Of a stretch of DNA of 34,816 nucleotides, positions 4,474 through 34,816 are shown one piece after another. Source of the DNA: a virus; IMG/VR virus record IMGVR_UViG_3300025880_000042; one strand, written 5' to 3'. Position 1 is the stretch's first letter; the number at the start of each line of letters is the position of its first letter. The notes beneath the pieces were generated by a model. The model saw only the letters and a list, made by a program, of their open reading frames with translations. It did no database searches and was not told the origin of the DNA. The position numbers and the translations under genes are program-made.

Positions 4474-6288
4474 TTATTTTTTAGTGTTTGGATAAGCTCC
4501 CCCATTCTTCATGTCAGAAGGTCTTACTGATACTTCTTTTGGGTTTTTGGGTTCAACAAATCCTTCTTCTGTAGCATCTGAAGCTTCAACTTCTGTGTTC
4601 TTACCCACTTTTTTCTTATAGACTCTTCTCTCCCACATGTGCTTACAGTTTTTTCCACCTTTGTAGAGAAACAAGCTATAGTTTTGCTTCTTATGTCCAA
4701 GATCTCTGTTAGCTCCTTTGAAAGACATCATTCCAATATCTTCTTTTCTAAACACTACATCTTTTTTAGTCAGAGCTTCCATCTTCTTGCAAAACACTCT
4801 ACTGTTAGCACTATTTCTTACAGGACCATAAGCATATCTTACTTTAAACCCTGCATTATCTTGCTTAGAGTCTTTATTGGGGTTGGCATCATCCTTAGAT
4901 ACTTTAGCTAAACTTGTTTTAAGCTCTTCTAATGAGGTTTCTGTTCCATCTAATAGTTGACTATCAATTAACTCCCATTCATCGCTTATAACCTCTCCTA
5001 AGTCTTCTAATTGCTCAAGCATATCCTCCCCATCTTCATCAGAGAAATCATCTAACTCAACTTCTTTTTGAGACGATAGGTTTTCAGATTGCTTCTCCCC
5101 TGTCTCTTCTTCCTTTCTTACTTTAGTAGATATGTTGTCTAACTCTGTAAATTCAATAGGTTGTAGAGTAATAAAGTATAGGTTTAAGAAGATTCCGTTA
5201 AAGTTTAGTATCTCGTTAAATCCATCAATTAAAGCCTGCTGAAATGGTCTAATAACAACATTGTCCATTATAATAGAAGCTGTTCTAAGCTCTTCTGCAT
5301 TGTTACCAAAGCCTGTGTTGTCCTTAATACCCATCAAGATAGGTGAAACAATTCTGTGACCCATCATAATCTTCTCTCTACTTTCTGTAGATAAGAATTG
5401 ATATTGTGCATGAGCATCAGGTAAATGTATTGGCTCTAAGTCAGCTTTAGTTTCTGCAGAGTCATTAAATGTAAGTATGAATTTACCTGCATTAGATGTT
5501 CCGCTAAACTTGTCGTATATCTTACTTTCTAATAACTCCTGAGTCTCTTCATTAGGTACTCCGTTATTAAAGTTGATTAGTAAGGAAGGTTGTAGACCAT
5601 TCTTTATGTTGTTGATATGGTAGTTAGATACTTCTTCTTCTAAAGAACAGTATTGTAAACAACCATTATAATCTACAGGTGCATAGTAATAAAAACCTGC
5701 TTTGTAAGGCTTAATTACAAATAACTCAATAACATCTGAATCAGAACCATTACCAAAAGTTGGTATTCTCTTAGGTTTGTCAGATGGTTTTATATCACAC
5801 CATTTAGGGTGGTAGTAGTAAGCTTTTATTTGACCATCAGTAGCTTTCTCAGCTCTTAATGTCTCCATTGGAAAGTGTAGTACTTTTACTATACTTGTTT
5901 TTTGCTTGTTGTAAACAAGCTGCATTGCAGACTGCCCAAGCATTTTATAGTCATTAACTACTTTCTTAACCTCTTTAGGTTTAAGTAGTAACTTCATTTT
6001 AGCATACATCTCAGGCTTAACATCTGAGTCAGTTGCATCTAAACCTCTACCATAAATCATCTCTACAATACCATTGATACAACCTGAATTGGTTGGACTA
6101 CCTAAGTATCTGTCAATTAACTGATCAAAGTAATCATTGTTTTCACCATACTGAACCCAATCCTTACCATACACCTCCTTAATCTCAGGAGCAGCATATC
6201 CTGAAAGATTAACAACCCTCACAGAACCCTCGCTAAATTTATTAGCAGGTTTTACGTTGTTATTTAATGTTACTCTTCTTTTAGCCAT
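4474..6288 (-). CDS. Portal protein fused to a C-terminal Mu-F / SPP1 gp7-like minor head domain
   Basis: 604-aa ORF. The N-terminal two thirds are portal-like (GSPTNSGCINGIVEMIYGRGL). An acidic linker is followed by SRVFCKKM...GGKNCKHMWERRVY, which resembles the Phage_Mu_F signature (R..C...nCrC/H). Confidence 0.7.
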   Translation of the reverse strand: MAKRRVTLNNNVKPANKFSEGSVRVVNLSGYAAPEIKEVYGKDWVQYGENNDYFDQLIDRYLGSPTNSGCINGIVEMIYGRGLDATDSDVKPEMYAKMKLLLKPKEVKKVVNDYKMLGQSAMQLVYNKQKTSIVKVLHFPMETLRAEKATDGQIKAYYYHPKWCDIKPSDKPKRIPTFGNGSDSDVIELFVIKPYKAGFYYYAPVDYNGCLQYCSLEEEVSNYHINNIKNGLQPSLLINFNNGVPNEETQELLESKIYDKFSGTSNAGKFILTFNDSAETKADLEPIHLPDAHAQYQFLSTESREKIMMGHRIVSPILMGIKDNTGFGNNAEELRTASIIMDNVVIRPFQQALIDGFNEILNFNGIFLNLYFITLQPIEFTELDNISTKVRKEEETGEKQSENLSSQKEVELDDFSDEDGEDMLEQLEDLGEVISDEWELIDSQLLDGTETSLEELKTSLAKVSKDDANPNKDSKQDNAGFKVRYAYGPVRNSANSRVFCKKMEALTKKDVVFRKEDIGMMSFKGANRDLGHKKQNYSLFLYKGGKNCKHMWERRVYKKKVGKNTEVEASDATEEGFVEPKNPKEVSVRPSDMKNGGAYPNTKK

Positions 6289-6783: not shown

Positions 6784-7306
6784 AACCACTAACGATAGTA
6801 AATCCTACATTTTCAGGAGTATCTCCTAAAAAGTTTGCAGGTGTTCTTTCCATAGCAGTTAAAGTAAGTGTGTAACCGCTCAAGTCAGACATTGCTGTAC
6901 CTGTAACGATAGTACCACCTGTTACTTCCGCACCATGCTCTAAACCTGCTAAAAAGAAGTTTCCGTTGTAATCTTCAATAATTACATGAGGTCTTCCGAA
7001 AGCCAAGATTTTAAGCTCTTTGTGGTCAGCTACAGTTAATTTCTTCAAAGTAACCTCAAGAACCTGCTCAAATGCAGTTGTTCCTGTATCTCTTGAAGAT
7101 TGAATGTTTTGAGTAAAAGAAGAAGCTCCTTTAATTTCGTATTTGTATGCGTTAGGTGTTCCTGCTACTGCATCAATTACATCTGAATCGGTTAAATCAT
7201 AAGTGATTGCTCCTAAATCATCGTAATTAACAAAGTACAAGTTTTTTAAGCCACCAACACTATCTTTGCAAGGTTCTATCCTTCCTAATGTTAAATCACA
7301 AGCCAT
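6779..7306 (-). CDS. Abundant virion protein, probable major tail (tube) protein
   Basis: 175-aa ORF directly after the capsid gene and bracketed by two strong terminators. The Gly/Thr-rich beta-type sequence is tail-tube-like. The call is tentative. Confidence 0.4.
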   Translation of the reverse strand: MACDLTLGRIEPCKDSVGGLKNLYFVNYDDLGAITYDLTDSDVIDAVAGTPNAYKYEIKGASSFTQNIQSSRDTGTTAFEQVLEVTLKKLTVADHKELKILAFGRPHVIIEDYNGNFFLAGLEHGAEVTGGTIVTGTAMSDLSGYTLTLTAMERTPANFLGDTPENVGFTIVSGS

Positions 7307-7334
7307 TTGTTATATATTTTAAGGTTATTGTTAT

Positions 7335-7371
7335 AAAAAAAGGGCAGGCAGGCTTTACGGCTTACCTACCC
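7335..7371 (-). terminator. Rho-independent terminator after the major capsid gene
   Basis: Minus strand reads GGGUAGGUAAGC-CGUAAA-GCCUGCCUGCCC (12-position stem with two G-U pairs and one mismatch) followed by U7. Confidence 0.7.
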
Positions 7372-7393
7372 TTTATCTTTATTTAATTTCTAA

Positions 7394-8326
7394 TTATGCA
7401 GGTGTGTAAAGAACGATGTCTGAACCGATTCCGTACTGTACTCCACTTGTGTAACGCATTACCACACGAACATTCTGACTTCCATCAATGTCTGCCATGT
7501 CAATAACCTTTACTAAGTTATGGTCTGAAAGTAATCCTGTTCCGAAGAAGATGTTAGATTTTTCAGCAGCCATGATGTAGTTATCTCCCAATCCGTTTGC
7601 AACAAAGATTTTTACACCATCAAAAGATAATGCTCCGTTGTTCCACCATTGAGTTCCTTGTGCATTCACACCATTAGCACCTAATCCTGCAGCTCCAAAT
7701 CCTCCTAAAGCTCTAACGTAAGCTCTTGCTACGTTTTGAGATACATATAGGTACAAGTCTTCTTTTCCGTAAACTGCAGATGGAATAGCATCAACAACTT
7801 TCCCTAATTCGTCAATTACGTTAGCAGCAGTAATAGAAGTTCCTGCTACATCAACAACAGAAGCATCAGCAGTAGCCAAAGCAACTAATCCATCGAATTC
7901 ACCTGCAGTAGCGTTAGCTCCTGACCAAATAGTTTCCTCTGTTTTTTCAGCAACTTTAGCAGCAACATGTGCAACTAAGAAGTCTTGAAAAGATGGAGGC
8001 AAGTTGTCAAATGCAGAATATCCCATTTGTACTGCTTCCCAATCAGATACGAAGTCTTTCTTACATAATTCTAAGTTTACTTGAAACTCTTCAGGTTGTA
8101 AGATTCTTTCAGTTAATGTAATAGTTGAAGTAGGATCAAAATCACAAGTTGCATCTGCAACAAGGTCATTTGTAGATAATTTTTTCATTACCTCTTTGTA
8201 CTTCACATTTGGTTTTACTGTAATTCCACCATTCTCAATAGTAGAAGCAGATAATAAAGCAGCAGAGATATATTTACCTGCAAACTCACCTGCGTAAGTA
8301 GTAGTAATGTTAGTAGTTGTAGCCAT
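7394..8326 (-). CDS. Major capsid protein (HK97-fold type)
   Basis: 310-aa ORF directly after an acidic scaffold-like gene and followed by a strong terminator. The sequence character is typical of phage major capsid proteins. Confidence 0.7.
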   Translation of the reverse strand: MATTTNITTTYAGEFAGKYISAALLSASTIENGGITVKPNVKYKEVMKKLSTNDLVADATCDFDPTSTITLTERILQPEEFQVNLELCKKDFVSDWEAVQMGYSAFDNLPPSFQDFLVAHVAAKVAEKTEETIWSGANATAGEFDGLVALATADASVVDVAGTSITAANVIDELGKVVDAIPSAVYGKEDLYLYVSQNVARAYVRALGGFGAAGLGANGVNAQGTQWWNNGALSFDGVKIFVANGLGDNYIMAAEKSNIFFGTGLLSDHNLVKVIDMADIDGSQNVRVVMRYTSGVQYGIGSDIVLYTPA

Positions 8327-10610: not shown

Positions 10611-12872
10611 TTAACCTAAACTTGCAGTTGAAACAATGTTCCTATCCATCTCCTGTGCAGTAGACACATCTTTAGATACTACATAAGCTTTTACAGGTTG
10701 GTTAAATTGACCTTGTACTGCAGAAGCTAATTGATTACTTGCAGACTGACCTACTATGTTAAAATCAGGTGGTTGTATAGATGGTGCTGCCGCAGCTCCT
10801 CCGCCTGCACCTCCTTTAGGTGATGGAACTTCTGTTTTAAGTATATTTCTTACTTGCACAAATCCCATGGCTGCAACTGCTGCTGCTTGAGCAATATTCC
10901 ATGGTCCATAAGGTTTTGCTCCTAATGCCGCTGTAACTGCTTCATAAGTGTTCATGGTAGCCATAGCAACCGCAACTGCTTTACCTACAGCAGAACCTTC
11001 TCCTGCGATAGCTATAATTGCTTCACCTACTTGATTAGCAATAGCAAGTTTAGCTTGTTCACCATCTTCAAAAGCCTGAAGCCTTTTTTGATTTAACTCT
11101 TCTGTAGCATTAGCTATTTGCTGATCTTGAACAAAAGTATCTTGACCCGCCTTTATTCTAATCTTCTTCTCTTCCTCTATTAAGGCTATTTTTTGTGCAG
11201 CTTTTTCTTGCTCTAAAGCAAAGTTAGCGTCTATTCTATCTAAATCATTTGTAGCTAAAGCAGCAACAGAAGCTAATTCAGCAACTTGATTTTCATTTAG
11301 TAGTTGTTCAAATGCAAGGTTTTTCTGCCTTTCTAACTGAAGAGATTTATTGTTGAAGGAAGCTTCAAGTGCTAATAAAACATCATGATACTCTTTTCTT
11401 GCTGCTGCTGCAGAAGCATAAAACTTTGTTCTACCATCTCCAAGTTCTTTTTCAGCTTGCTCTACTTCTTTTCTTGTAGACTTACTGTTGTTTATAATAG
11501 CTTCTTTTTCTGCTCTAAATTCAGCAAATCTAAGCCTTTCCTTTTCTAAGAAATCATCTCTTCTTCTTTTGAGGTCAAGAATAGCAGCCTCTTTGTTTAT
11601 TTGAAGCCTTTCTTCTTCTGTGGTTCTTTCATCTGTTAAAGATTCTTTTCTGTACTTTAACTCGAGCTTTCTTAGGTTTAATAATCTCTGTTTAAAGAAA
11701 TCATCTATATTTTTAGCAGAAGCACCTCTACCTTTTTTGTCTTCTTTACATGTACCAAGCAATAAACAGAAAAATGGATTATCTTTATATCTATCCGCAA
11801 TTTCTTTTAGCCTCTTTTCGGAATCAGAACTTATAGCTTTAAATGAATCATTGTTTTTTCCTATTTCTTCTGTTAAAGCAGTCCAAGTTTTTGTATAGTT
11901 TTTATTTAGCTTCTCTTTGTTTATATAACTTTTCTGACCTCTCGCTTCTAAATCCTCTGCTTCTTGTAGTTTGCCTAAATATTCTTCAGTAGCAGAAGTT
12001 AGCTGTTCGTTCAGCTCAATATCTTTCTCTATTACTTTCTGAAGTTTCTTCTTTGTTATTTCTTCAGTAGCTTCAAACATAAGAAGATCCTTCTTGATAG
12101 CTAAATAATCATCAATACTACCAATAGCTTCATCAAAACCTTCTTTTTTTAGTCTTTCTAAAGCTACTCTTTGACTTGCAGTAGAAGCGGTTGAGTCTTT
12201 TAGTACAGCAGCTAATGACTCTATAGCAGCTACTTGACCTTTAGCTCCAACTATAGCTTCTGTAGCTTCCTCTGTAGCTCTTTTTGCCTCTCTTTGAGAT
12301 AAAGTGTATTTTTCTATAAAGAATATAACTAATTGAAATGCAATGATAAGTCCACCTGCACCAAGCATTTGCTTGCCCAAGTCTTTCATCGCATTTTTGA
12401 ACCCCTTGCTTTGATCAACTAAAGAAACAAAATAGTAACCTAATTGAGACAAGTTGTTTGCTACCGCCGTAAATCCGTAGTTAGCATCAGAGATAGTCCT
12501 ACCAACTTCGACAAGTGTTTGTGAGGCTAAACCTGCACTATTACGCATACCCTTAAAGCCTTGGCTTACAGCAGAATTTTTACCTTGGAACGTAGATAGT
12601 TCTTTTTGAAGACCTTCTATAGTTCTTTGATATTGCACATACTCAAAAGAAGTTATCTCAACAGATTTTTGTAATTGTCTTTGATAAGTAATCTGATCTC
12701 TTATAGACTGCTCAGTTCTTTTATAAGCAGGCTGTACAGCACCAACTAATGTTTTAGATAGATTCTTCTCCGCTGTATCTAACTTGCTGATACTTGAAGT
12801 TAGTCCATCAATCTCAAGCTTGCCTTTGCCGAAATCAACCCTTATGTTAATTATCTTAGTTAAATCTGCCAT
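10611..12872 (-). CDS. Tape measure protein
   Basis: 753-aa ORF with long coiled-coil stretches, an internal hydrophobic segment (GAGGLIIAFQLVIFFI) and an Ala/Gly-rich C-terminal region, as in siphovirus tape measure proteins. Confidence 0.6.
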   Translation of the reverse strand: MADLTKIINIRVDFGKGKLEIDGLTSSISKLDTAEKNLSKTLVGAVQPAYKRTEQSIRDQITYQRQLQKSVEITSFEYVQYQRTIEGLQKELSTFQGKNSAVSQGFKGMRNSAGLASQTLVEVGRTISDANYGFTAVANNLSQLGYYFVSLVDQSKGFKNAMKDLGKQMLGAGGLIIAFQLVIFFIEKYTLSQREAKRATEEATEAIVGAKGQVAAIESLAAVLKDSTASTASQRVALERLKKEGFDEAIGSIDDYLAIKKDLLMFEATEEITKKKLQKVIEKDIELNEQLTSATEEYLGKLQEAEDLEARGQKSYINKEKLNKNYTKTWTALTEEIGKNNDSFKAISSDSEKRLKEIADRYKDNPFFCLLLGTCKEDKKGRGASAKNIDDFFKQRLLNLRKLELKYRKESLTDERTTEEERLQINKEAAILDLKRRRDDFLEKERLRFAEFRAEKEAIINNSKSTRKEVEQAEKELGDGRTKFYASAAAARKEYHDVLLALEASFNNKSLQLERQKNLAFEQLLNENQVAELASVAALATNDLDRIDANFALEQEKAAQKIALIEEEKKIRIKAGQDTFVQDQQIANATEELNQKRLQAFEDGEQAKLAIANQVGEAIIAIAGEGSAVGKAVAVAMATMNTYEAVTAALGAKPYGPWNIAQAAAVAAMGFVQVRNILKTEVPSPKGGAGGGAAAAPSIQPPDFNIVGQSASNQLASAVQGQFNQPVKAYVVSKDVSTAQEMDRNIVSTASLG

Positions 12873-13019: not shown

Positions 13020-15113
13020 CTATTCTATATCTTCTATTAGTTCAACTTCACTATTACCATTTAAAAGGTTGGATGTTATTGAGTTTATTTTATAACTCTC
13101 ACCATTTATTATAAACCTATCTTTAAGTTCGTATTTAGCAAGAACTTTTATTGGTAGTAAAGCGTTTATTTTGGTTATTCTATTATATTGATTAAATACA
13201 GACTCTATGTATGTTTGATAATAGTTTTTAAATAAAGACTCCTCGTTAAATAACAAGTTAAACTCATCATTCTCTGTGTCGAAGTTTAGTGTTTGACTTT
13301 CATCTTCAGTTACATTACTCGGTCTATTATATGTTGATGGTGTAGAAAGTGTAATACCATCTGCACTCCTGAAGTATATGTTTTTACTACCTACCGTTTC
13401 ATTAACATTAAAGAATAATAATGGATTACCTTTTATGGCATCTTCATTTTCACTAACAAACCAACCATAAGCTATATTAGTTTCTCCACTATCATTTTCA
13501 TCAACTAATCTTTCGTATATAACCTTTTCAAATGGAAGTCTTACATCATAATTCTCACCATCAATATATTCTCCATCTATAATAACATTAAACTCTTCCG
13601 CTCCAAACTGCTGACCATTTCTTTCTTCAAACTCTACAGCTAAGAAAGTATAGGGATCTCCAAATCTAAAGTCAATGTTTCCGTAAAGAGGAACTCTTTC
13701 TATGGTAGACTCATCTACTTTAACGTAGTCTGTTATGTCATGTTTAGTGGCAGAATTGTAACTACCATAATAATTATCTAAAGTGTCTACGACTATTGTG
13801 CCTGCATCGTTAACATAAGCAGTTAAGTTAAACATCTTGAATAAACCTGTTAGTAGGTCTATTACTTTAATATCAGGAGTCTGATTTTCTAAGATCATAT
13901 CCCCAATCATGCTTTGATTTTCTGCCTGATATGTTTGCCCATTAAAACATCTCGCTCTATCGTCAGGCTGTATAAATATTGTTCTTATATACCACTCAGC
14001 ATCATATATAAGAAAAGCACTATCATCTTTTGTTGATATTTGAACTTGTATTTCATAGTCTCTACTCGCTTCTCCTTCTGCAGGAAGCATACCAATACCA
14101 ACTTCAGTTATACCTGAAACACCTGTCTCTTCTTTTAGAGTTGTGTCAGAAACTAAGTCAACTATCTTGTAACTATATTCTTCTCCTAAAGCATCAGGAG
14201 TTATAGTTAAATCTGCAATAATGTGTATGCTGTCATCAATGTTGGAATTTGTGGTGGTACATGAAAAGTATTCATCAGAGAAAGTAATTCTATTTTCGAA
14301 TACATCACACTCGGTAGTTGTTTCTGTTAACACCCAACCGCTAACATTCATGGTTGAAATACCTTCTGCATAACTTACCTGACCTGCCCCTCTGTGCATC
14401 CACATGTATAGCTGCTCAAATAAAGTTGTTCCAAAGAAATCTCTTGAGAATGTTAATGGATAGCTATCCTCTATAGCTTCAATAATTCTAATTAATCTAA
14501 TTGCAGGCTTTAAGTCTTGTGGAAGAAACCCATCTCCCGATAAAGCTGACCCAATATTAGCATAGTTGTCTATAGGTGTATATCCTGCGTTAGAATCATA
14601 TATAAACCTTCTTTTAGGGCTTATAAGTGGATATATAACTGCAGCAGCATCTCCATTAAACTCTAAACCTGTTTCTAAGCCTTCTAAGACATTATCATAG
14701 GTCCACTCATGGTTATATGCAGATAAATCTAAATTCTTCAGCTTATCGTCTCCTAATATCCTTGAAAGAGATACTATAGATCCAAAGAAAGTTAACTCAT
14801 AAGAATAAGCTTTATTATTCTTCATTTTAACTCTATTTAGCCTAATAGTACCCCTCTTAAAAGGAGAGTGGTTTAGTTCTATGATAGCTGTACTTCTGAA
14901 CCTTGCATCATAGCCATTCTGTATAGAGTTATTATAGTAGTGCTTAAATATTTTATTATTAGTCTTTGATGCAGGTACGTTAAAAGTTTGTGAATAGTCT
15001 GTAAATATTTTAGAAATATCTCTAACATCTTGTATAGATGAGGTTAACTGAATACTCTCATCATCAAACATTTCCACTCTCTGACCATCTATGTAGAGTT
15101 GTATTGTCTGCAT
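13020..15113 (-). CDS. Large tail/baseplate structural protein
   Basis: 697-aa ORF in the tail gene block. N-terminus is IQLYIDGQRVEMFDDESIQLTSSIQDVRDISKIFTDYSQTFNVPAS. The family was not identified with certainty. Confidence 0.45.
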   Translation of the reverse strand: MQTIQLYIDGQRVEMFDDESIQLTSSIQDVRDISKIFTDYSQTFNVPASKTNNKIFKHYYNNSIQNGYDARFRSTAIIELNHSPFKRGTIRLNRVKMKNNKAYSYELTFFGSIVSLSRILGDDKLKNLDLSAYNHEWTYDNVLEGLETGLEFNGDAAAVIYPLISPKRRFIYDSNAGYTPIDNYANIGSALSGDGFLPQDLKPAIRLIRIIEAIEDSYPLTFSRDFFGTTLFEQLYMWMHRGAGQVSYAEGISTMNVSGWVLTETTTECDVFENRITFSDEYFSCTTTNSNIDDSIHIIADLTITPDALGEEYSYKIVDLVSDTTLKEETGVSGITEVGIGMLPAEGEASRDYEIQVQISTKDDSAFLIYDAEWYIRTIFIQPDDRARCFNGQTYQAENQSMIGDMILENQTPDIKVIDLLTGLFKMFNLTAYVNDAGTIVVDTLDNYYGSYNSATKHDITDYVKVDESTIERVPLYGNIDFRFGDPYTFLAVEFEERNGQQFGAEEFNVIIDGEYIDGENYDVRLPFEKVIYERLVDENDSGETNIAYGWFVSENEDAIKGNPLLFFNVNETVGSKNIYFRSADGITLSTPSTYNRPSNVTEDESQTLNFDTENDEFNLLFNEESLFKNYYQTYIESVFNQYNRITKINALLPIKVLAKYELKDRFIINGESYKINSITSNLLNGNSEVELIEDIE

Positions 15114-17152: not shown

Positions 17153-17673
17153 TACTTAACTTCTTTTAAATATCTTTCTAATGTGTATTCTAAATCTTCA
17201 CCAAATGCCTCAAGAACCTCCTGTCCAAAGACATCTTTTATATTGTTGTAAACTATATCTATTAAACCTGTTCCTGTATAGTTAAACCTTTTAATAGATC
17301 CGTTTCTTCCTAACGCTCTTGCTATTGCAAATGAAGCACTACGCATCTTATAGTCAGTTACAGTAGTAAATCTACCCTTAGAGTCTCTAAGCTTAACATT
17401 CTTCTCCCTCATCCAATGCAATATAGCTGTAGATGGTGGCATTTGTTGATTAGGACCTCTACCATCACTAATTGCAGTAATGTATTTCTCTCCTAATACA
17501 CTAAGTTCAGACTCTAAATCTGATATAGTAACTTCAGAATCAAGACTCTTGGAAGCTTTTCCGCTCGCATAAGTGCCATCAGCTTTTAGTCTATCTTGAT
17601 ACTGCTTTACAAATAACTCTCCATAGGCAGTTAATAGTCTTTTAAGGTTAACATATTTGTTCCCCTCTAACAT
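17152..17673 (-). CDS. Hypothetical protein (head-tail joining candidate)
   Basis: 173-aa ORF. It shares 1 nt with the downstream gene and overlaps the upstream gene by 7 nt. Confidence 0.45.
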   Translation of the reverse strand: MLEGNKYVNLKRLLTAYGELFVKQYQDRLKADGTYASGKASKSLDSEVTISDLESELSVLGEKYITAISDGRGPNQQMPPSTAILHWMREKNVKLRDSKGRFTTVTDYKMRSASFAIARALGRNGSIKRFNYTGTGLIDIVYNNIKDVFGQEVLEAFGEDLEYTLERYLKEVK

Positions 17674-18125
17674 ATAGAAATATCATTAGGCATTTCAATA
17701 ACTATATCTGCTCCCCAACCTGCTAATTCATTCTCAAACCTGTCCATAAAAGGCTGCACACTAACATCTTCCACTACCTGCAACCTATCTGTGAACAAAA
17801 GACCTCTTCTTAACTGAGATACAACATCATTTACCACCTGTAGTTGTGTGTTTAAGATGTCCTGCATGTTGTCATTCCCATAAAACTCATCGTCAGGATT
17901 ACTTTCTTTATTGTAGTCAACTATGTCTACACATAATAGCTGCAAAGTAAAAGATACTGTATGCTCTCTGATCGTTGCGTTAGAGATGTTTAAGTGAGAA
18001 AGTGGAAATATTGTTGTCTTATCCAAATCCACTTTTGTAATATCCCCATACGTTACAGAGAATACATTAGGATTTTCCCTCAACCTATCCTTTATCTTGT
18101 CTAATATGTCGTAAAACTGTGTCAT
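17667..18125 (-). CDS. Hypothetical protein (tail completion/terminator-like candidate)
   Basis: 152-aa ORF. The pattern (FPLSHL...FMDRFENELAGWGADIVIE) is reminiscent of neck/tail-completion proteins. Low certainty. Confidence 0.4.
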   Translation of the reverse strand: MTQFYDILDKIKDRLRENPNVFSVTYGDITKVDLDKTTIFPLSHLNISNATIREHTVSFTLQLLCVDIVDYNKESNPDDEFYGNDNMQDILNTQLQVVNDVVSQLRRGLLFTDRLQVVEDVSVQPFMDRFENELAGWGADIVIEMPNDISIC

Positions 18126-18127
18126 AA

Positions 18128-18400
18128 CTAACTTTTATATGCCCTTTTAATGGCATCTGCTTCTAATTTATTCTTCTCCTTCTCAAACTCAAGCCATATT
18201 AAGCATTGCTGTAGTGGAAGCTTGGTAACTTCTGAAATCCTTCTGACATCTCCCTGTGCAAGTCCGTAAATACTTTGATACCATCCCCACTTCTTTCCAA
18301 ATCCTTGTTCTGCGGTTGCAATTTGACCTGCTTGTCCACCTGATGCTGTAAATAGTCCATCATATAACCCGATAATTTTTTCCCTAAACGATAAAAAAAA
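18128..18400 (-). CDS. Start-less -1 frame extension reachable from ORF 18199..18927 by slippage on a T9 run
   Basis: Hand translation of the -1 frame after T_TTT_TTT (18394-18400): LSFREKIIGLYDGLFTASGGQAGQIATAEQGFGKKWGWYQSIYGLAQGDVRRISEVTKLPLQQCLIWLEFEKEKNKLEADAIKRAYKS. It stops at TAG 18128-18130, 2 nt before the next ATG. This frame contains no start codon. Confidence 0.5.
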   Translation of the reverse strand, partial: FFLSFREKIIGLYDGLFTASGGQAGQIATAEQGFGKKWGWYQSIYGLAQGDVRRISEVTKLPLQQCLIWLEFEKEKNKLEADAIKRAYKS

Positions 18401-18927
18401 ACAACCGCTCCTAAAGCAACATTTACAGGGGCATCTTTCATTATCTCTGCATACTTATCAGATCCTTCATAGTCCTCTATCACATAGAAACCTTTTTTAC
18501 CTGCAACAATAGGTCTATATAGCACGGCTAAAGCCTTGTGCATGTTCTGCCAATCCCCAATGTATTTCTCTACATCAATATACTCACCAAAGCTCATTTC
18601 ATCTAACTTAGGTATAAAGCCAAACTCTGCAGACACACCATCACTACCTGTCATGGTAAATCTCTGAACTAAAGGGGTATCCTCGTTAAAACACTCAGCT
18701 ACTTGTGCTATCACACTCTCAAACATAGATACAGGTAAACCATAACTATCCTTCAAAGTAAGATCACAGAATATCTCTAAAGACTTTAGATTTAAGAACT
18801 CTAATGCTTCAGGTGTCTCCTTATCTTCTATCCCATCTAATATCTTCAAATACTTCTGATACTGATGCAACTTGATAGCCTCTAAAGCCTGTGGCACTTT
18901 TACTTCTAAATCAACTACATTGCTCAT
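18199..18927 (-). CDS. Tail assembly chaperone-like protein (0-frame product)
   Basis: 242-aa ORF. MSFGEYIDVEKYIGDWQNMHKALAVLYRPI resembles tail assembly chaperone families. It carries the slippery T9 run. The 0-frame stop leaves an atypical 73-nt gap to the next gene. Confidence 0.45.
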   Translation of the reverse strand: MSNVVDLEVKVPQALEAIKLHQYQKYLKILDGIEDKETPEALEFLNLKSLEIFCDLTLKDSYGLPVSMFESVIAQVAECFNEDTPLVQRFTMTGSDGVSAEFGFIPKLDEMSFGEYIDVEKYIGDWQNMHKALAVLYRPIVAGKKGFYVIEDYEGSDKYAEIMKDAPVNVALGAVVFFYRLGKKLSGYMMDYLQHQVDKQVKLQPQNKDLERSGDGIKVFTDLHREMSEGFQKLPSFHYSNA

Positions 18928-19376
18928 ATAATAATCTCTATATATAGTATAACTAAAATCTATAATTATGTATCACTTATGAATAAACTATAAATTTTAT
19001 TTATGGTTAATTAAACAAATATAATAAAATAATATGACAATAGAGTGGTTTATGCTTGTACAAATTCCTGTTTTTTAGTTATCTTAGTATAGCAGTTGGA
19101 AATCTGTATAAGTTCCCAAACTTGTGTCATAAATGTTAGGCACTTGGATCAAGTAAACCTTGCTTAGGAATTGCGGTATTAGAACAATCTACTTTTATAT
19201 CTTTTGATGCACCCCAATACCATTCAACCTAACCATTCATTCAGCCATACAGTCTATTGGCACAGACACATATTAAAGATATTAAGGGGGTGCTTACATC
19301 TTCTTTCCATTTAATTCTATCAAGTCACCTCACTTGTACTTCCCTTAGAGAGTTACAACTAAGGTTACCAAAAGTT

Positions 19377-19457
19377 ATTGAATTCATAGAATCGGGTTAA
19401 TACACATACTAATCTTTCGTTTTACATTGAATTCATAGAATTGAGATAATACACATA
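19377..19457. repeat. Two 32-bp direct repeats (iteron-like), 49-bp period
   Basis: 19377-19408 is ATTGAATTCATAGAATCGGGTTAATACACATA and 19426-19457 is ATTGAATTCATAGAATTGAGATAATACACATA, a 29/32 match. Each has a TGAATTCA palindrome and ends in TAATACACA. Confidence 0.9.
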
Positions 19458-19525
19458 GAATATATTTATATTACGATCATTTAGCATAAGTAAACCTTAT
19501 ACTTAATCTAAGGCTATTTAGAGCG

Positions 19526-19561
19526 TGTTTAAGAGTGTTTAGAGTGTGGATAGTGTTAAGG
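19526..19561. repeat. Four tandem degenerate 8-10-mers including a DnaA-box-like 9-mer
   Basis: TGTTTAAGAG / TGTTTAGAG / TGTGGATAG / TGTTAAGG. TGTGGATAG (19545-19553) matches the complement of the DnaA box TTATCCACA at 8 of 9 positions. Confidence 0.7.
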
Positions 19562-19654
19562 TATTATTAATTTGTAATGGTTTGTTACCCCTATCCTATC
19601 TACTATATATGTAAACCAATAACCTACAAAAAAAGGCTATTAAAAACAAGGCAT

Positions 19655-19678
19655 AAAAAAACCCCCAATTAAGGAGGT
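19655..19678 (-). terminator. Rho-independent terminator closing the small-ORF island
   Basis: Minus strand reads ACCUCC-UUAAUU-GGGGGU (6-bp stem with one G-U pair) followed by U7, located 29 nt after the stop of ORF 19707..19931. Confidence 0.6.
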
Positions 19679-19706
19679 TTAAGACTGTTTAAATTGTAGG
19701 TATAAA

Positions 19707-19931: not shown

Positions 19932-20103
19932 CTATATAAATACCGTTAAGGTTTATATGTTCTATTTTGTAGCTCTTTATAAATGTTTTTTGATTTTTCC
20001 ACAGGCTTAATTTATCGGTTATTAATTCTAAGAAAAAAGAGTGTTGTTCATTTGTTGTTTGATTGTAAAATTCAATTACTTGTGTGTGTTGTTCGGGTGT
20101 CAT
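19909..20103 (-). CDS. Hypothetical small protein (accessory island)
   Basis: 64-aa ORF starting 1 nt after the upstream stop. Confidence 0.5.
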   Translation of the reverse strand: MTPEQHTQVIEFYNQTTNEQHSFFLELITDKLSLWKNQKTFIKSYKIEHINLNGIYIDVHIKKD

Positions 20104-20104
20104 A

Positions 20105-20335
20105 TTATTTCAATTTGTTTATATCTGTTAATACTTGATCGCTATAAATATCTTTGTAAGAATTAAACATTTGCTCAAACATTTCATGCAATGTGTTTTC
20201 ATTATTTGTGCGAGCATTAAAATTTTTTATGCGTTTCACTTTGTCTAAATTGTGTTTAAATTGTTTTTGTTTCATGATCTTTTTTGTTTTAATATATGTC
20301 CCCATTTTCTGTAAATTCATAACCATTGATGTCAC
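20105..20335 (-). CDS. Hypothetical small basic protein (accessory island)
   Basis: 76-aa Lys-rich ORF. A downstream ATG (for example at 20305 or 20275) would reduce the 47-nt overlap. Confidence 0.45.
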   Translation of the reverse strand: MTSMVMNLQKMGTYIKTKKIMKQKQFKHNLDKVKRIKNFNARTNNENTLHEMFEQMFNSYKDIYSDQVLTDINKLK

Positions 20336-20510
20336 AATGTTCTTTTATGTCGCATTCCTCCATGTCAATAAAGTAATGATATTTCATTTCCCCGCTTTCT
20401 GTTTCATATTCCAAAGGGTTAAAATCTAACCAATAAACAACATTTTCTTTTGCTTCTTTACTTAATTCATCAAATGAATAAATATTAATTGTTTTTGTCT
20501 CTTGTCTCAT
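20289..20510 (-). CDS. Hypothetical small, strongly acidic protein (accessory island)
   Basis: 73-aa ORF. By my count, roughly a quarter of residues are Asp/Glu. C-terminus is NGYEFTENGDIY. Confidence 0.5.
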   Translation of the reverse strand: MRQETKTINIYSFDELSKEAKENVVYWLDFNPLEYETESGEMKYHYFIDMEECDIKEHCDINGYEFTENGDIY

Positions 20511-20521
20511 GATATTTTATT

Positions 20522-20716
20522 TTATAATTCGTTTTTAATTGTAGGCAAGCAACCCATTAACCCGCCCTGATTCATATATTGGGTCCTGTGTTTTACTAAA
20601 TCATTTGTTAAGATGTACGAATTATCAGGCATTAAAATGATAAAGTCTTTTTTGCTTTTGCTTATTGAAAACCTTTGCTTAATTGGTAAGGCTTTTATTT
20701 TACTTATTAATGTCAT
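20522..20716 (-). CDS. Hypothetical small protein (accessory island)
   Basis: 64-aa ORF, tightly packed. Confidence 0.5.
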   Translation of the reverse strand: MTLISKIKALPIKQRFSISKSKKDFIILMPDNSYILTNDLVKHRTQYMNQGGLMGCLPTIKNEL

Positions 20717-20720
20717 GGTG

Positions 20721-21557
20721 TTATAATTTTATTAATTGTTTACCTATTGTATCAACCTCTTTTAATGGTATGTTGTGGCATCCTATTTTAAGTATATTGT
20801 CTTTTATTCCTATAACTGTGTAATAATCCAATTTAAAGCCTTTTATATCTTTACCCGCCTCAATTAGTTTATACAATACCTTTGCCTTTTTAACCTCTAT
20901 TCTAACACCTCCCGAGGTCTCAACGCTTGCACTATCTTTTGACAATCTTAAAAGACTGTTTTTAATTCCATGCAAATACATTTTATCATGGTTTCGCCAA
21001 AGTTTTATGTTTTCTTTATTCCTTTCGTATTGTCTTTTTTCTTTTGCCTTAACCATTTCGGCAACCTCTGAAAGTATTTTGTCTTTGTCTGTTTCAAGCC
21101 TTTGTACTATTTTCTTTATTTGCTTATATTCCTTTAGCTTAGAAACTTTTGTTTTTGTCTTTGTATATATTAGGTATTCATTTAGCCTTTCAAATAAGTA
21201 TAAAATTCTTTTTAAATACACCGCTTTATTTGTCCTTGCTTTGGGTATTTTTGGAAGTGTTGCGTTTATTTCGGCATGCACTAAAAAAAGGTCTGTTTCT
21301 GTTTTATTAAATCTTTTATATTGGGTTGTTGCATCTACTAAGGAATAAATATGTTTCGAGGTTGTAACGCTATACCCTTTGTCATTTATTAAAATAGTGT
21401 CTTTGTCTATAAATTCACCTAATAAATAATGGTAGCCATAAGAGTAAATTTTTGTACCCTCAAAAAATATGCTCCCGCTTTGGTTCCTACCCTCGCTTTG
21501 TGTTTGTTGGGCGTAAACATGTATTACCTCTTCTGTGTTTCTTAAAACTTTTCTCAT
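20721..21557 (-). CDS. Hypothetical protein (largest gene of the accessory island)
   Basis: 278-aa ORF. The N-terminus is VIHVYAQQTQSEGRNQSGSIFFEGTKIYSYGYHY, followed by a Lys/Glu-rich helical middle and the C-terminus KIGCHNIPLKEVDTIG. No function recognised. Confidence 0.55.
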   Translation of the reverse strand: MRKVLRNTEEVIHVYAQQTQSEGRNQSGSIFFEGTKIYSYGYHYLLGEFIDKDTILINDKGYSVTTSKHIYSLVDATTQYKRFNKTETDLFLVHAEINATLPKIPKARTNKAVYLKRILYLFERLNEYLIYTKTKTKVSKLKEYKQIKKIVQRLETDKDKILSEVAEMVKAKEKRQYERNKENIKLWRNHDKMYLHGIKNSLLRLSKDSASVETSGGVRIEVKKAKVLYKLIEAGKDIKGFKLDYYTVIGIKDNILKIGCHNIPLKEVDTIGKQLIKL

Positions 21558-21561
21558 GATA

Positions 21562-21753
21562 TTAAATATTAAAGTTAGTATATAATTTACTGAAAGCTAA
21601 AATTGTGCAAGCTCCAAAGATTCCAAAGGTCATATCATTTAAAGGTAAGTTAAAACCTAAGGTTAAAAATAAACCCGCAGTTAATACAATTAATGTATAA
21701 ATAAATAAAGCGGTTAAAAATGTAGCTGTTAAAATGTTGGATAATGTTTTCAT
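21562..21753 (-). CDS. Small two-TM membrane protein (first gene of the island)
   Basis: 63-aa ORF, almost entirely hydrophobic (two helices). Confidence 0.5.
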   Translation of the reverse strand: MKTLSNILTATFLTALFIYTLIVLTAGLFLTLGFNLPLNDMTFGIFGACTILAFSKLYTNFNI

Positions 21754-21785
21754 GGTGTTTTTTGTTTTAATGATTAATTACATTT

Positions 21786-21816
21786 CAAATGTACACCCTT
21801 TTTTTAAATAAACAAT
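21786..21816 (-). promoter_or_regulatory. Candidate Bacteroidota-type promoter for the small-ORF island
   Basis: Minus strand reads ATTG-N19-TACATTTG, compared with the consensus TTTG-N19-21-TAnnTTTG. The box ends 32 nt upstream of the ATG at 21753. Confidence 0.4.
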
Positions 21817-21964
21817 ACCATGCAAGAAAAAAACACACTTTTTTTTCACTTTTAACACTTTTTTAAGTTAAACCTTTGTTTTATCATGGTTTACATCTTT
21901 TCAAATACTTATATAATGAATCCCGCACACGCAAATACACCTTTATTTGAATTGTGCAAGCATT

Positions 21965-22011
21965 TTAACATTTATTTAACATTTGTAGGAAAATGGCTAC
22001 ATGTAGGAAAA
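21965..22011. promoter_or_regulatory. Cluster of short repeats and a 10-bp palindrome (operator-like)
   Basis: TTAACATTT occurs twice (21965 and 21976). TGTAGGAAAA occurs twice (21984 and 22002). There is a perfect palindrome CTACATGTAG at 21997-22006. Confidence 0.45.
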
Positions 22012-22136: not shown

Positions 22137-22178
22137 AAATAAAAAAAAATATTTTTACTGCCGTAGCAAAAAAAAAAA

Positions 22179-23399
22179 TTATCTAACTACATACTTTCCT
22201 GAATTAACTCCTTGCACTAAATATTGTAAAGAATATCTACAGGCATCCAAGAAGTGATTCCATTTGTCTATTGGCTTAGAGTTCTTATCCTGCCAAGTAT
22301 AGTTGTTAAGCTCTCTAATAACACCATGAGATTCTCTATCAACTATTATCTCAAAGTCTTGCATCAAGGCAATACCACTTAAAATACTCCCTTGTCTTTT
22401 GATAGTTGGTTTAACATTGACTCCTTTGCGTTTCATCTCGTTTATAAGTCTTGGTTCAGAGTTATCACAAATGATCAGGTCCATGCCGCACTCCATCTTA
22501 TTCCTTGTAGCTATCTCATCTGTGCTTAGACTCGGTTTACCATAAATCTCTTTAACCCACATCTTTCTACCTTCTTTATCTACAGAAATCTTTACAAGAG
22601 TTGTTAAATCGGTTGCGAACCCAAAATCCTGCCCATAACATGTATGCTCGGTCTGTAAGTACTCACCTACTCTCCAATTCTTAAAGATTGTTCCCTCTGC
22701 CTTAGCTAACCATCCCCCAAGGATCTGATGTTGGTATTTGTCAGGTCTTCTCTTCTTCATGTCCATTACCTGCACTAAGAAAGAGTCTGATAGGTTATCT
22801 TTATTATCTCTGTAGTCTGTGTGTATGTAAGTTATATCATTGTTAGAACCATTATAAGCATCTATAACACCATAAGACTGAAAGAATCTTTGGTATATCC
22901 AATGCTCTTTAGTTGTGGGGTTTAATATCAGAATACACCTGTTCTGTTTAGTCTGACTCCTTACAGAGAAGTCTATCTTATCAAAGACTGACTCATCTAT
23001 AAGCTCTTCTGCCTCATCTAATACAAAGGTTGTAACTCCGTTTAAAGACTTTAAAGCAGCAGTTTGATTACCCGATGATGTTCTAATACCCTTAAATATT
23101 ATAGAGCTTCCTGTAGTTAGATTTATGATCTCATCTTTAGTTATCCTAAAGTCTTCTGATACACCCATCATATCTATCTTCTCTATAAATTCAGGGATAA
23201 TAGAAGTCTGTGCGGAGATCATGGTATATCTTGTAAACAATACCTTATGACCTTCTTCATAGGTTAAGTTAAGTAAGAAAACGGCTACACCAAATGATTT
23301 ACCTGATCCTCGACCACCTGTAACTACAAAGTACCTACTTGGACTCTGCCATAGTGGTATATATTTCTCATGTATCTTTACCTCTTGTTTACTACTCAT
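22179..23399 (-). CDS. terL: Terminase large subunit (PBSX/XtmB-like family)
   Basis: 406-aa ORF. It has a Walker A motif (VVTGGRGSGKSF), a Walker B-like motif (TFVLDEAEE) and a C-terminal nuclease-like region, with the overall pattern of Terminase_3/PBSX-type large subunits. Confidence 0.85.
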   Translation of the reverse strand: MSSKQEVKIHEKYIPLWQSPSRYFVVTGGRGSGKSFGVAVFLLNLTYEEGHKVLFTRYTMISAQTSIIPEFIEKIDMMGVSEDFRITKDEIINLTTGSSIIFKGIRTSSGNQTAALKSLNGVTTFVLDEAEELIDESVFDKIDFSVRSQTKQNRCILILNPTTKEHWIYQRFFQSYGVIDAYNGSNNDITYIHTDYRDNKDNLSDSFLVQVMDMKKRRPDKYQHQILGGWLAKAEGTIFKNWRVGEYLQTEHTCYGQDFGFATDLTTLVKISVDKEGRKMWVKEIYGKPSLSTDEIATRNKMECGMDLIICDNSEPRLINEMKRKGVNVKPTIKRQGSILSGIALMQDFEIIVDRESHGVIRELNNYTWQDKNSKPIDKWNHFLDACRYSLQYLVQGVNSGKYVVR

Positions 23400-32870: not shown

Positions 32871-33257
32871 CTACCAAAGATAGAATGCCCTTTCTTTTAA
32901 ATCATCAGTATCGAAATACACAGTCTCTCTGTTTACTGCTATTCTCTCAACACCAAATTCAACTAACGCTTTTATTATTACCATTCTCTTTTTATGACCT
33001 ACACATCTTAGTCTTACAGCTTTACCAACTCTATGACTATCTGTAGACACTAAACCCATCTTGTCAGCTACAGGCTTAGATACATAACCAAGCTCTACAT
33101 TCATCTTAGCTTGAGTCTTTCTTACTATAGCATCTAATATAAGGACAGGTTCTCTTTCCATGAACCTAAAACCACTTCCCTTTGAATCAGGACTGTCAAA
33201 CATATCCCATGTTAGGTATGTTAATCCTTCGCAGTTCTGTAGCTCTTCTTTAGTCAT
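32871..33257 (-). CDS. Degenerate Peptidase_M15-like protein (paralog of the endolysin that lacks two of the three zinc ligands)
   Basis: 128-aa ORF that aligns by eye with ORF 34235..34603 (FDSPDxxGSG; SGYRT/LGYVS; SSHLKGLAADI/DSHRVGKAVRL; FIHVD/VYFD). The Asp ligand is replaced by Arg and the second His by Tyr. Confidence 0.6.
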   Translation of the reverse strand: MTKEELQNCEGLTYLTWDMFDSPDSKGSGFRFMEREPVLILDAIVRKTQAKMNVELGYVSKPVADKMGLVSTDSHRVGKAVRLRCVGHKKRMVIIKALVEFGVERIAVNRETVYFDTDDLKERAFYLW

Positions 33258-33505
33258 TAGGCTTCTTTGTTTTTATACTCTTTATCTTGATAGTATAATA
33301 ACTGAGAGCCTGCAAAACTATCTAAGTCCTTTATAGCTCTATAGATTACCCTACTCTTTTTTTTTACTTCTTCCACATCAGATTTAGTAGAATCAGAACC
33401 TAAGTTGGTGTACATATTGGTATCAGCCTCCAAAAGCTCATCAATTCTCTCCTTGATGCTTTTATTGAAGTCTTCTGCGATTCTTTTTACTTCTTCCTTA
33501 TCCAT
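33257..33505 (-). CDS. Hypothetical protein
   Basis: The track ORF starts at TTG 33532. The first ATG (33505, MDKEEVKR...) is more plausible. A TATATTTG box lies at 33510-33517. Confidence 0.5.
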   Translation of the reverse strand: MDKEEVKRIAEDFNKSIKERIDELLEADTNMYTNLGSDSTKSDVEEVKKKSRVIYRAIKDLDSFAGSQLLYYQDKEYKNKEA

Positions 33506-34603: not shown

Positions 34604-34758
34604 ATAATCTTACCTAATAAAATACTTGTTAAAACCATTACTAACATGACAAATAAAGCAAACTGAAACTTATCCCAAGTACTACCATTTTTCTTTTGGT
34701 GTAGCCATATCTTAAATTCTATAAACTTAAATACTATTTTATCAATTAGCTTTCTCAT
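34600..34758 (-). CDS. Small ORF (52 aa) with a C-terminal TM helix, crossing into the terminal repeat
   Basis: Hand translation: MRKLIDKIVFKFIEFKIWLHQKKNGSTWDKFQFALFVMLVMVLTSILLGKII. It has an ATGA overlap with the endolysin start. Its ATG (34758, equivalent to position 33) overlaps the 3' end of ORF 17..310. Confidence 0.45.
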   Translation of the reverse strand: MRKLIDKIVFKFIEFKIWLHQKKNGSTWDKFQFALFVMLVMVLTSILLGKII

Positions 34759-34816
34759 TTATTTTCTCGTTTAGTCGTTTAATATCTTTTCTTACTCTTT
34801 CCCTTTCAAGTTTTAT
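34726..34816. repeat. Terminal direct repeat, right copy (identical to 1..91)
   Basis: Exact 91-bp match to the window start. Confidence 0.95.

Follow-up and report, generated by a model that had tools for sequence, protein, structure and literature searches.

The stretch of DNA analysed here, which we call the window, is the 34,816-nucleotide (nt) virus record IMGVR_UViG_3300025880_000042 from IMG/VR. On its minus strand a run of nine T residues (T9) lies within an open reading frame (ORF) for a protein of 242 amino acids (aa), and the -1 frame entered at the run stays open for a further 88 codons. We refer to this locus as the frameshift gene. Comparison with its relatives showed that both the run and the -1 frame are conserved, and from these sequences we consider it rather probable that programmed -1 recoding takes place at this conserved run, giving a 242-aa and a 266-aa form of one protein.

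The T9 site and its two reading frames

The locus consists of the following features, in positions of the window.

18199..18927, minus strand: 0-frame ORF, from ATG at 18927 to TAA at 18201-18199, 242 aa; the predicted short isoform, made up of a 178-aa N-domain and a 64-aa alternative tail
18401..18393, minus strand: T9 slippery run (A9 on the plus strand)
18400..18394, minus strand: in-phase heptamer T_TTT_TTT (phase GT/T TTT TTT/ T, slashes bounding the heptamer)
18128..18394, minus strand: -1 frame extension, 88 sense codons without a start codon, then TAG at 18130..18128
18202..18393, minus strand: dual-frame overlap, 64 codons of the 0-frame lying over the -1 frame
17667..18125, minus strand: next gene, 152 aa, with its ATG at 18125, 2 nt past the stop of the -1 frame

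Codons 176-179 of the 242-aa ORF read GTT TTT TTT TAT, and the heptamer within them has the X_XXY_YYZ pattern in the phase of the 0-frame. Read from 18394, the -1 frame gives LSFREKIIGLYDGLFTASGG...WGWYQSIYGLAQGDVRRISEVTKLPLQQCLIWLEFEKEKNKLEADAIKRAYKS (the entire 88-codon translation is LSFREKIIGLYDGLFTASGGQAGQIATAEQGFGKKWGWYQSIYGLAQGDVRRISEVTKLPLQQCLIWLEFEKEKNKLEADAIKRAYKS), and ATG, GTG and TTG are all absent from it. Codons 1-178 joined to this extension would encode the 266-aa long isoform, with ...DAPVNVALGAVVFFLSFR spanning the junction and a conserved helical C-domain (FGKKWGWYQSIY...LEFEKEK) behind it. Past the run, the 0-frame has another 64 codons with a tail sequence of its own, for example LSGYMMDYLQHQVDK, before a gap of 73 nt to the next ATG. 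It is unusual for two overlapping frames both to stay open this long: across the N-terminal part of the gene family, stops interrupt the +1 frame once in ~8 codons, and its open runs average 6.4 codons. The first-pass annotation of this sequence had described the run, the start-less 88-codon frame and the spacing to the next ATG, and every coordinate proved correct; its remark that two such overlapping frames are unexpected is borne out by the frequency of off-frame stops in the N-domain part.

With a guanine-plus-cytosine (GC) content of 34% in the window, T9 runs by themselves are no rarity: six matches were counted against 4.0 expected. The significance of the run comes from its conservation. 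Another homopolymer of nine lies in the minus-strand gene at 33505..33257, which has A9 on its coding strand (33357-33365). In that gene the codons GTA AAA AAA AAG form an in-phase heptamer of the dnaX type, A_AAA_AAG; the -1 frame stops after 2 codons, and a slip there would truncate a small protein.

Conservation of the site and of both frames

To compare the locus with its relatives, we gathered 80 loci from IMG/VR and 34 from genomes or metagenome-assembled genomes (MAGs) by similarity to the N-domain only, a selection independent of what comes after the run. We found that in all 107 loci having both parts, the window included, the C-domain lies in the -1 frame and begins exactly at the junction. 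Aa identity across these loci ranges from 72% down to 31%, and that of the C-domain at the -1 junction, as measured by tblastn, from 35 to 64%. The run is T9 in 98 loci and T10 in six, whereas three have an A_AAT_TTT heptamer instead, so that at least nine T residues are present in 104 of the 107. The six T10 loci have other phases or an additional Phe codon, and they still require the -1 shift. When IMG/VR was scanned separately for the pattern with any run from T8 to T11, the counts were 114 T9 sites, two in-frame T10 sites and three with T10 plus 2 nt that still need the shift. The family, whose members are marine Flavobacteriaceae phages and prophages, is large: the protein database yielded 1,638 homologues (hits among 90% clusters), and an exhaustive profile search yielded 3,157 clusters at 50% identity with E <= 1e-3. 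A megablast search of the locus against 50,697 phage genomes gave no match. One IMG/VR contig (L025) is possibly the product of a rearrangement or a chimera: its matches to the N-domain and the C-domain (5110-5589 and 7230-7472) are on opposite strands, ~2 kb apart.

The Nonlabens (Persicivirga) phages P12024S and P12024L, whose gene order is that of the window, are the only relatives in culture. P12024S (NC_018271, genus Inhavirus) contains an orthologue with only ~22% aa identity, in the same genome order of terminase large subunit (TerL), frameshift gene, tail block, tape measure and head genes. Its site, C-T9-ATCATTTAGGGA, is followed by the C-domain in the -1 frame, as in the window; the sequence around the run is ...ATAC TTTTTTTTT ATCATTTAGGGAA, and the -1 frame reads FFLSFRERLRDLYPELYTT...FSLKWSWYHTF... 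P12024S differs from the window in its short 0-frame tail, 25 aa past the slip, and in the annotation of the locus (L081 12001-12695; NC_018271 23136-23830) as two hypothetical genes with no frameshift. These two genes, gp38 (175 aa) and gp39 (55 aa), are the 0-frame part and the -1 part of one frameshifted gene, and PHROGs keeps the parts as separate families, phrog_32199 and phrog_38404. A literature search did not find a prior description of this frameshift site.

Among the 107 loci are prophages integrated in isolates of Galbibacter pacificus, Flagellimonas onchidii and Maribacter sp.; each reads C-T9-GG at the junction, the first on an 871-kb contig with 468x coverage, and their presence there identifies Flavobacteriaceae as the hosts. 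The first-pass annotation had offered programmed frameshifting, transcriptional slippage or a homopolymer error as explanations, had proposed a comparison with related phages and had allowed that the -1 frame might turn out not to be conserved in them. The comparison revealed the opposite, with the run and both frames conserved and the -1 arrangement kept in 107 of 107 loci. Because the same arrangement occurs in every relative examined, including the high-coverage isolates and P12024S, the error explanation is refuted. Programmed recoding is supported, and a ribosomal slip is favoured over a transcriptional one, as discussed below.

Synonymous sites revealed a further signal. Among 26 representatives with <80% identity, we measured the fraction of identical codons in pairs sharing an amino acid and found 0.78-0.80 at the site, against a baseline of 0.47 across the N-domain. 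Homologues have thus kept the site and the trans-frame ORF together with a peak of synonymous-site conservation at the site. In most relatives the TGA of the -1 frame overlaps the ATG of the next gene (ATGA), which suggests translation of the -1 frame and its coupling to the operon. Together with the missing start codon, this overlap argues at the sequence level that the -1 frame is really translated.

We then modelled the predicted products with AlphaFold2 (AF2). A fused (T10) homologue, modelled from a 23-sequence alignment, formed one compact unit with a predicted local distance difference test (pLDDT) score of 84 and a predicted template modelling (pTM) score of 0.79. The N-domain of the model is alpha/beta and leads into a long helix (165-185) in which the slip site falls; residues 193-203 form a disordered linker to a C-domain of three helices. 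In BFVD it matched only uncharacterised phage proteins, among them single-chain ones of 260-270 aa that span the model from end to end with a template modelling (TM) score of 0.77, which suggests that the long form is the full-length architecture. The 242-aa 0-frame product, modelled from a 44-sequence alignment with a pLDDT of 78, has a confident N-domain that is the same as in the long form, then a helix (168-203) and a low-confidence tail (pLDDT 35-54). As modelled, the short form would thus be without the conserved C-domain.

The 0-frame tail, which had already looked atypical for its 64 codons and the 73-nt gap behind it, is itself a conserved feature, the 0-frame being open for 47-87 codons in all relatives derived from IMG/VR and genomes. 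Synonymous-site identity stays raised for ~18 codons past the slip and then falls to about 0.5. Only the first ~18 tail residues (YRLGKKLS.Y...YL) are under extra constraint, in agreement with the match of phrog_32199, a family of unknown function, to the 0-frame product through residue 199 (E 1.4e-13). When we resampled synonymous codons of the C-domain frame, even with the first 21 fixed, the observed open length was rarely reached (P about 0.015 per lineage), indicating that stops are avoided without sequence conservation. Such avoidance would fit selection on the length or disorder of the tail, or selection for unshifted ribosomes to end nearer the next gene. We rejected the idea that the tail is a second functional domain: its NGxGI and SLxE motifs follow from the KWGWY and GD that the -1 frame encodes, and synonymous sites are at baseline after ~18 codons. 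An overlap of 47-87 codons with stop avoidance and little sequence constraint is unusual, and it represents a testable case of selection on an overlapping frame.

Proposed slippage at the run and competing explanations

In the reading we favour, the majority of ribosomes would read through the run and make the 242-aa protein, in which the N-domain is followed by the extended helix and a tail of poor conservation. Other ribosomes, a fraction of the total, would shift to the -1 frame at the U-run and make the 266-aa protein, in which the 178-aa N-domain is joined to the conserved helical C-domain of ~50 residues. The shift would be a tandem -1 slippage of two tRNA-Phe on U_UUU_UUU with no dedicated stimulator, as at lambda G/GT, and stuttering of RNA polymerase on the run may add to it. 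The -1 stop would then bring shifted ribosomes right up to the start of the next gene, and the two isoforms, with and without the C-domain, would plausibly act in a fixed ratio in tail or neck assembly. We estimate that the slip is probably mainly ribosomal and that a mainly transcriptional slip is the less likely case; both may act on one run.

The evidence that points to the ribosome comes from three loci in three metagenomes (L045, L046 and L047), which show that not all members requiring the frameshift have a long homopolymer. In these loci the run is replaced by ATA AAT TTT, an in-phase A_AAU_UUU heptamer (A_AAT_TTT in DNA, of the X_XXY_YYZ pattern) one codon upstream, and their predicted fusion GAINF-YLPFRN aligns without gaps to GAVVF-FLSFRE. 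With only A3T4, they point to a ribosomal slip, since polymerase slippage needs a longer homopolymer. A slip of this kind can do without a stimulator, as lambda G/GT has none.

Several observations weigh against this reading. RNAalifold found no conserved pairs downstream of the site in 27 diverse sequences, fold z-scores of single sequences (~0 to +1.3) were no better than those of shuffles, and no conserved upstream Shine-Dalgarno-like element was seen. With no stimulator, ribosomal efficiency may be low. U_UUU_UUU is also a weaker, modest shifter compared with A_AAA_AAG in Escherichia coli (PMC5009743). Furthermore, the run has at least nine T residues in every run-type member, even where phase or flanks have changed (L208, L209, L219 and L224; for example TTT TTT TTT CTG in L224 and ATT TTT TTT TTG in L219), and a length of at least nine hints at transcriptional slippage. 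No homology establishes a function for the protein.

Three candidate stimulators were considered and rejected. The AGGAG of the window, proposed as a Shine-Dalgarno-like element, belongs to a Gly-Ala codon pair whose GGN third position varies in relatives. An ATCGT...ACGAT pairing noticed by eye at some loci was not supported: RNAalifold gave 0 conserved pairs, and folds did not improve on shuffles. A small CCGUU/AACGG hairpin after the L045 heptamer is not kept in L046.

The strongest competitor, which we regard as possible and clearly the less likely, is that the slip is mainly transcriptional. The polymerase would stutter on T9 and add one U, and the U10 transcripts would give the 266-aa protein by standard translation, while U8 transcripts would give a product cut at a conserved +1-frame TAG two codons later. 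The length of the run in 104 of the 107 loci, including members that differ in phase, agrees with this, as does the lack of a conserved RNA stimulator, and the long ORF predicted on this view is exactly what the T10 DNA variants encode. For bacterial RNA polymerase, a run of 9 A or T is enough for efficient slippage, which is used productively (PMC5009743). However, L045, L046 and L047 keep both frames and the -1 C-domain with A3T4 alone. In addition, the two extra T residues flanking the heptamer can be accounted for by codon constraints, as coding also sets these positions (V/L/I before; Leu in the -1 frame or Tyr/Trp in the 0-frame after).

A broader version of the transcriptional explanation is somewhat less probable again. 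It holds that T9 would be primarily a site of programmed transcriptional slippage across thousands of phage and prophage lineages of Flavobacteria, with three outputs: short from U9, long from U10, and truncated at the invariant +1-frame TAG from U8. The open 0-frame tail would then be selected so that most ribosomes end near the next gene without uncoupling the tail operon. Ribosomes of the phylum, the Bacteroidota, do not use Shine-Dalgarno signals. If true, phage morphogenesis genes would here provide their first widespread case of programmed polymerase slippage.

We consider it very unlikely that the answer lies in the DNA itself, with T10 and its single 266-aa ORF as the functional state and T9 an error, or with a hypermutable run that toggles between short and long. 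In-frame variants do exist, with T10 in L082, L084, L114, L181 and L239 and T8 in L083 (near 10512), and every one of them retains an open alternative frame, which marks them as recent changes. All 107 loci selected by N-domain nevertheless need the -1 shift, the separate IMG/VR scan counted 114 T9 against two in-frame T10, and the high-coverage isolate genomes have T9. Some of the T10 contigs come from low-coverage, long-read-looking assemblies (labels '2.23x' and '4x'), and a switch in the genome could not give both forms in one infected cell. The in-frame variants that could be traced (T10 in L082, L084 and L239; T8 in L083) all keep the other frame open, indicating recent indels or assembly errors.

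In-frame proteins in the database were also considered as deep single-ORF relatives and rejected, as the readable ones are T10 or T8 with the other frame open. One comes from a low-coverage contig with T9 and a second indel. The models in BFVD are the one place where truly single-ORF distant relatives are suggested. T11 variants were deduced from P0017 and P0018. The T8, T10 and T11 variants may be either natural homopolymer polymorphism or assembly errors.

The least probable idea of all is that recoding does not occur, with the 242-aa protein as sole product and the -1 ORF as a relic or an independently initiated small gene. In its favour, the -1 ORF of P12024S has an in-frame ATG and is annotated as a separate gene, gp39, and phrog_38404 contains such 55-aa pieces. 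Against it, the -1 ORF of the window has no ATG, GTG or TTG, and conservation sets in exactly where the frames join (LSFRE...), before the P12024S ATG is reached. Past the slip, nothing is better conserved than the C-domain, and a relic would not remain open in 107 lineages.

Genome setting and likely role of the protein

The ends of the window share an exact overlap of 91 nt (1-91 and 34726-34816), which indicates a circularly closed genome of ~34,725 bp (about 34.7 kb). Nearly all genes are on the minus strand, and scans of the window with Rfam and for tRNAs gave no hits. Three features frame the position of the frameshift gene.

22179..23399, minus strand: terminase large subunit; the frameshift gene comes straight after it in P12024S
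19659..19680, minus strand: terminator-like hairpin ending the upstream operon
10611..12872, minus strand: tape-measure-like protein, 753 aa, coiled-coil-rich, with hydrophobic segments and a Gly/Ala-rich C-terminus; weak match to phrog_3336 (tape measure)

Between the hairpin and the frameshift gene lies an AT-rich spacer of ~730 nt without an ORF (region 18928-19680), and hairpin and spacer together indicate that the frameshift gene opens a new transcription unit. Possible contents of the spacer are a late promoter, a regulatory region or a packaging site. After it come the frameshift gene, ORFs of 152, 173, 304, 366 and 697 aa and the 753-aa tape-measure-like gene, followed by genes for an XkdF-type protease, a probable capsid protein, a portal and fibre-like proteins. 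The frameshift gene thus opens the tail block, and the tape measure gene lies five genes (5.3 kb) further downstream. The layout of the block is the same in P12024S, L083 and L084.

The 697-aa protein (13020-15113), encoded just upstream of the tape measure gene, is homologous to P12024S gp45 (L081 15667-17931), which carries a BACON carbohydrate-binding domain. The tail block therefore has a non-canonical order: a receptor-binding-like gene precedes the tape measure gene, and the head genes come behind it. On the minus strand a T11 run (22168-22178) sits directly past the terminase stop, and there is a T9 run at 22141-22149; the two are candidates for a terminator tail or a regulatory tract. 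GC content is 0.285 in 20001-22000, the small genes between terminase and frameshift gene, versus ~0.34 elsewhere.

Searches of Pfam, NCBIfam and PHROGs assigned no functionally named family to the frameshift protein or to most of its neighbours; Pfam and NCBIfam gave no match to the protein, and PHROGs gave only phrog_32199 and phrog_38404, both of unknown function. A profile search of the PDB returned nothing, and the best Foldseek match there had an E of 0.89. Judged by the models, the fold appears to be new. A BFVD match to a 'tape-measure chaperone' was rejected as not significant (E 0.1, TM 0.17). We infer that the frameshift gene encodes a morphogenesis factor, so far uncharacterised, at the head of the tail block in an Inhavirus-like Flavobacteriaceae phage.

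The first-pass annotation had likened the arrangement to the G/GT tail assembly chaperones and had seen a chaperone-like N-terminal domain. The architecture of the likeness stands, as the shared N-terminus and conserved -1 frame are found in 107 of 107 loci. Membership in the chaperones does not: the gene does not adjoin the tape measure gene on its upstream side with the major tail protein gene before it, the 0-frame does not end near the slip (64 codons here, 47-87 in relatives, 25 in P12024S), and no sequence or fold likeness to known chaperones was found, with none of the tail assembly chaperone families of Pfam, PHROGs and NCBIfam matching. Nor did the chaperone-like appearance of the N-terminal domain find any support. 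The annotation had placed the gene about 5 kb and six to seven genes from the tape measure gene; the distance was right, and the number of genes is five. The idea of a tail assembly chaperone is one of analogy, drawn from the -1 shift, the tail block, the tape measure and the absence of another recognisable frameshifted chaperone pair. That the protein is a functional analogue of G/GT is conceivable, if doubtful; otherwise it may be a neck or tail assembly factor.

The closest known system is gpG/gpGT of lambda (Levin 1993; Xu, Hendrix and Duda 2004, summarised in PMC5009743). Both involve a -1 slip on a heptamer in a morphogenesis gene of a tailed phage, with a shared N-terminus, a longer form carrying an extra C-terminal domain and no need for a strong stimulator. 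In both, the arrangement lies in the tail block of a phage with a tape measure and is kept across very divergent sequences. However, the gene described here is the first of its block and does not adjoin the tape measure gene, its 0-frame runs on for 47-87 codons, its 178-aa N-domain has no chaperone sequence or fold match, and the slip falls in the middle of a predicted helix. The transcriptional slippage systems of Thermus thermophilus dnaX and Shigella mxiE use runs of 9 A or T (PMC5009743), and the exact T9 within a coding region seen here resembles them, with one added nt joining the frames into a longer product and no need for an RNA structure. In contrast to them, the present family has three members with a ribosomal-type heptamer and no long run, and the gene is a phage gene with a host in the Bacteroidota.

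The tau/gamma pair of E. coli dnaX also comes from one gene whose two isoforms differ in C-terminal domains by a -1 slip on a homopolymeric heptamer. There the shifted frame ends almost at once and is aided by a Shine-Dalgarno-like element and a hairpin, whereas here the shifted frame carries the conserved domain and no stimulator is seen. Among phage structural proteins, SPP1 gp17.1* is reportedly extended by a frameshift. A minor C-terminal isoform of a virion-module protein is produced by recoding, as would be the case here, in the major head protein of Lactobacillus phage A2 (-1; cited in PMC10885494) and in T7 10A/10B. The T7, A2 and SPP1 proteins are capsid or tail-tube proteins with known folds, and the frameshift protein has neither fold.

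A -1 recoding event that gives two C-terminal isoforms of a phage morphogenesis protein is well known; as far as our searches show, this family, its site and the extent of the site are undescribed. What is unusual is the combination of a stimulator-free T9, natural heptamer variants, a long dual-frame overlap, a position at the head of the tail block and an unmatched fold. The family is misannotated throughout, either as a truncated protein or, in the reference P12024S, as two genes, and because of this the conserved C-domain is missing from protein catalogues. If the protein is a tape measure chaperone, the logic of G/GT would survive both relocation and a different fold. The T9 and A_AAT_TTT members of one family provide a natural experiment on ribosomal versus polymerase slippage. 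Culturable systems, namely P12024S and the prophages of Galbibacter, Flagellimonas and Maribacter, allow recoding to be studied in the Bacteroidota, a phylum whose translation signals differ from those of E. coli.

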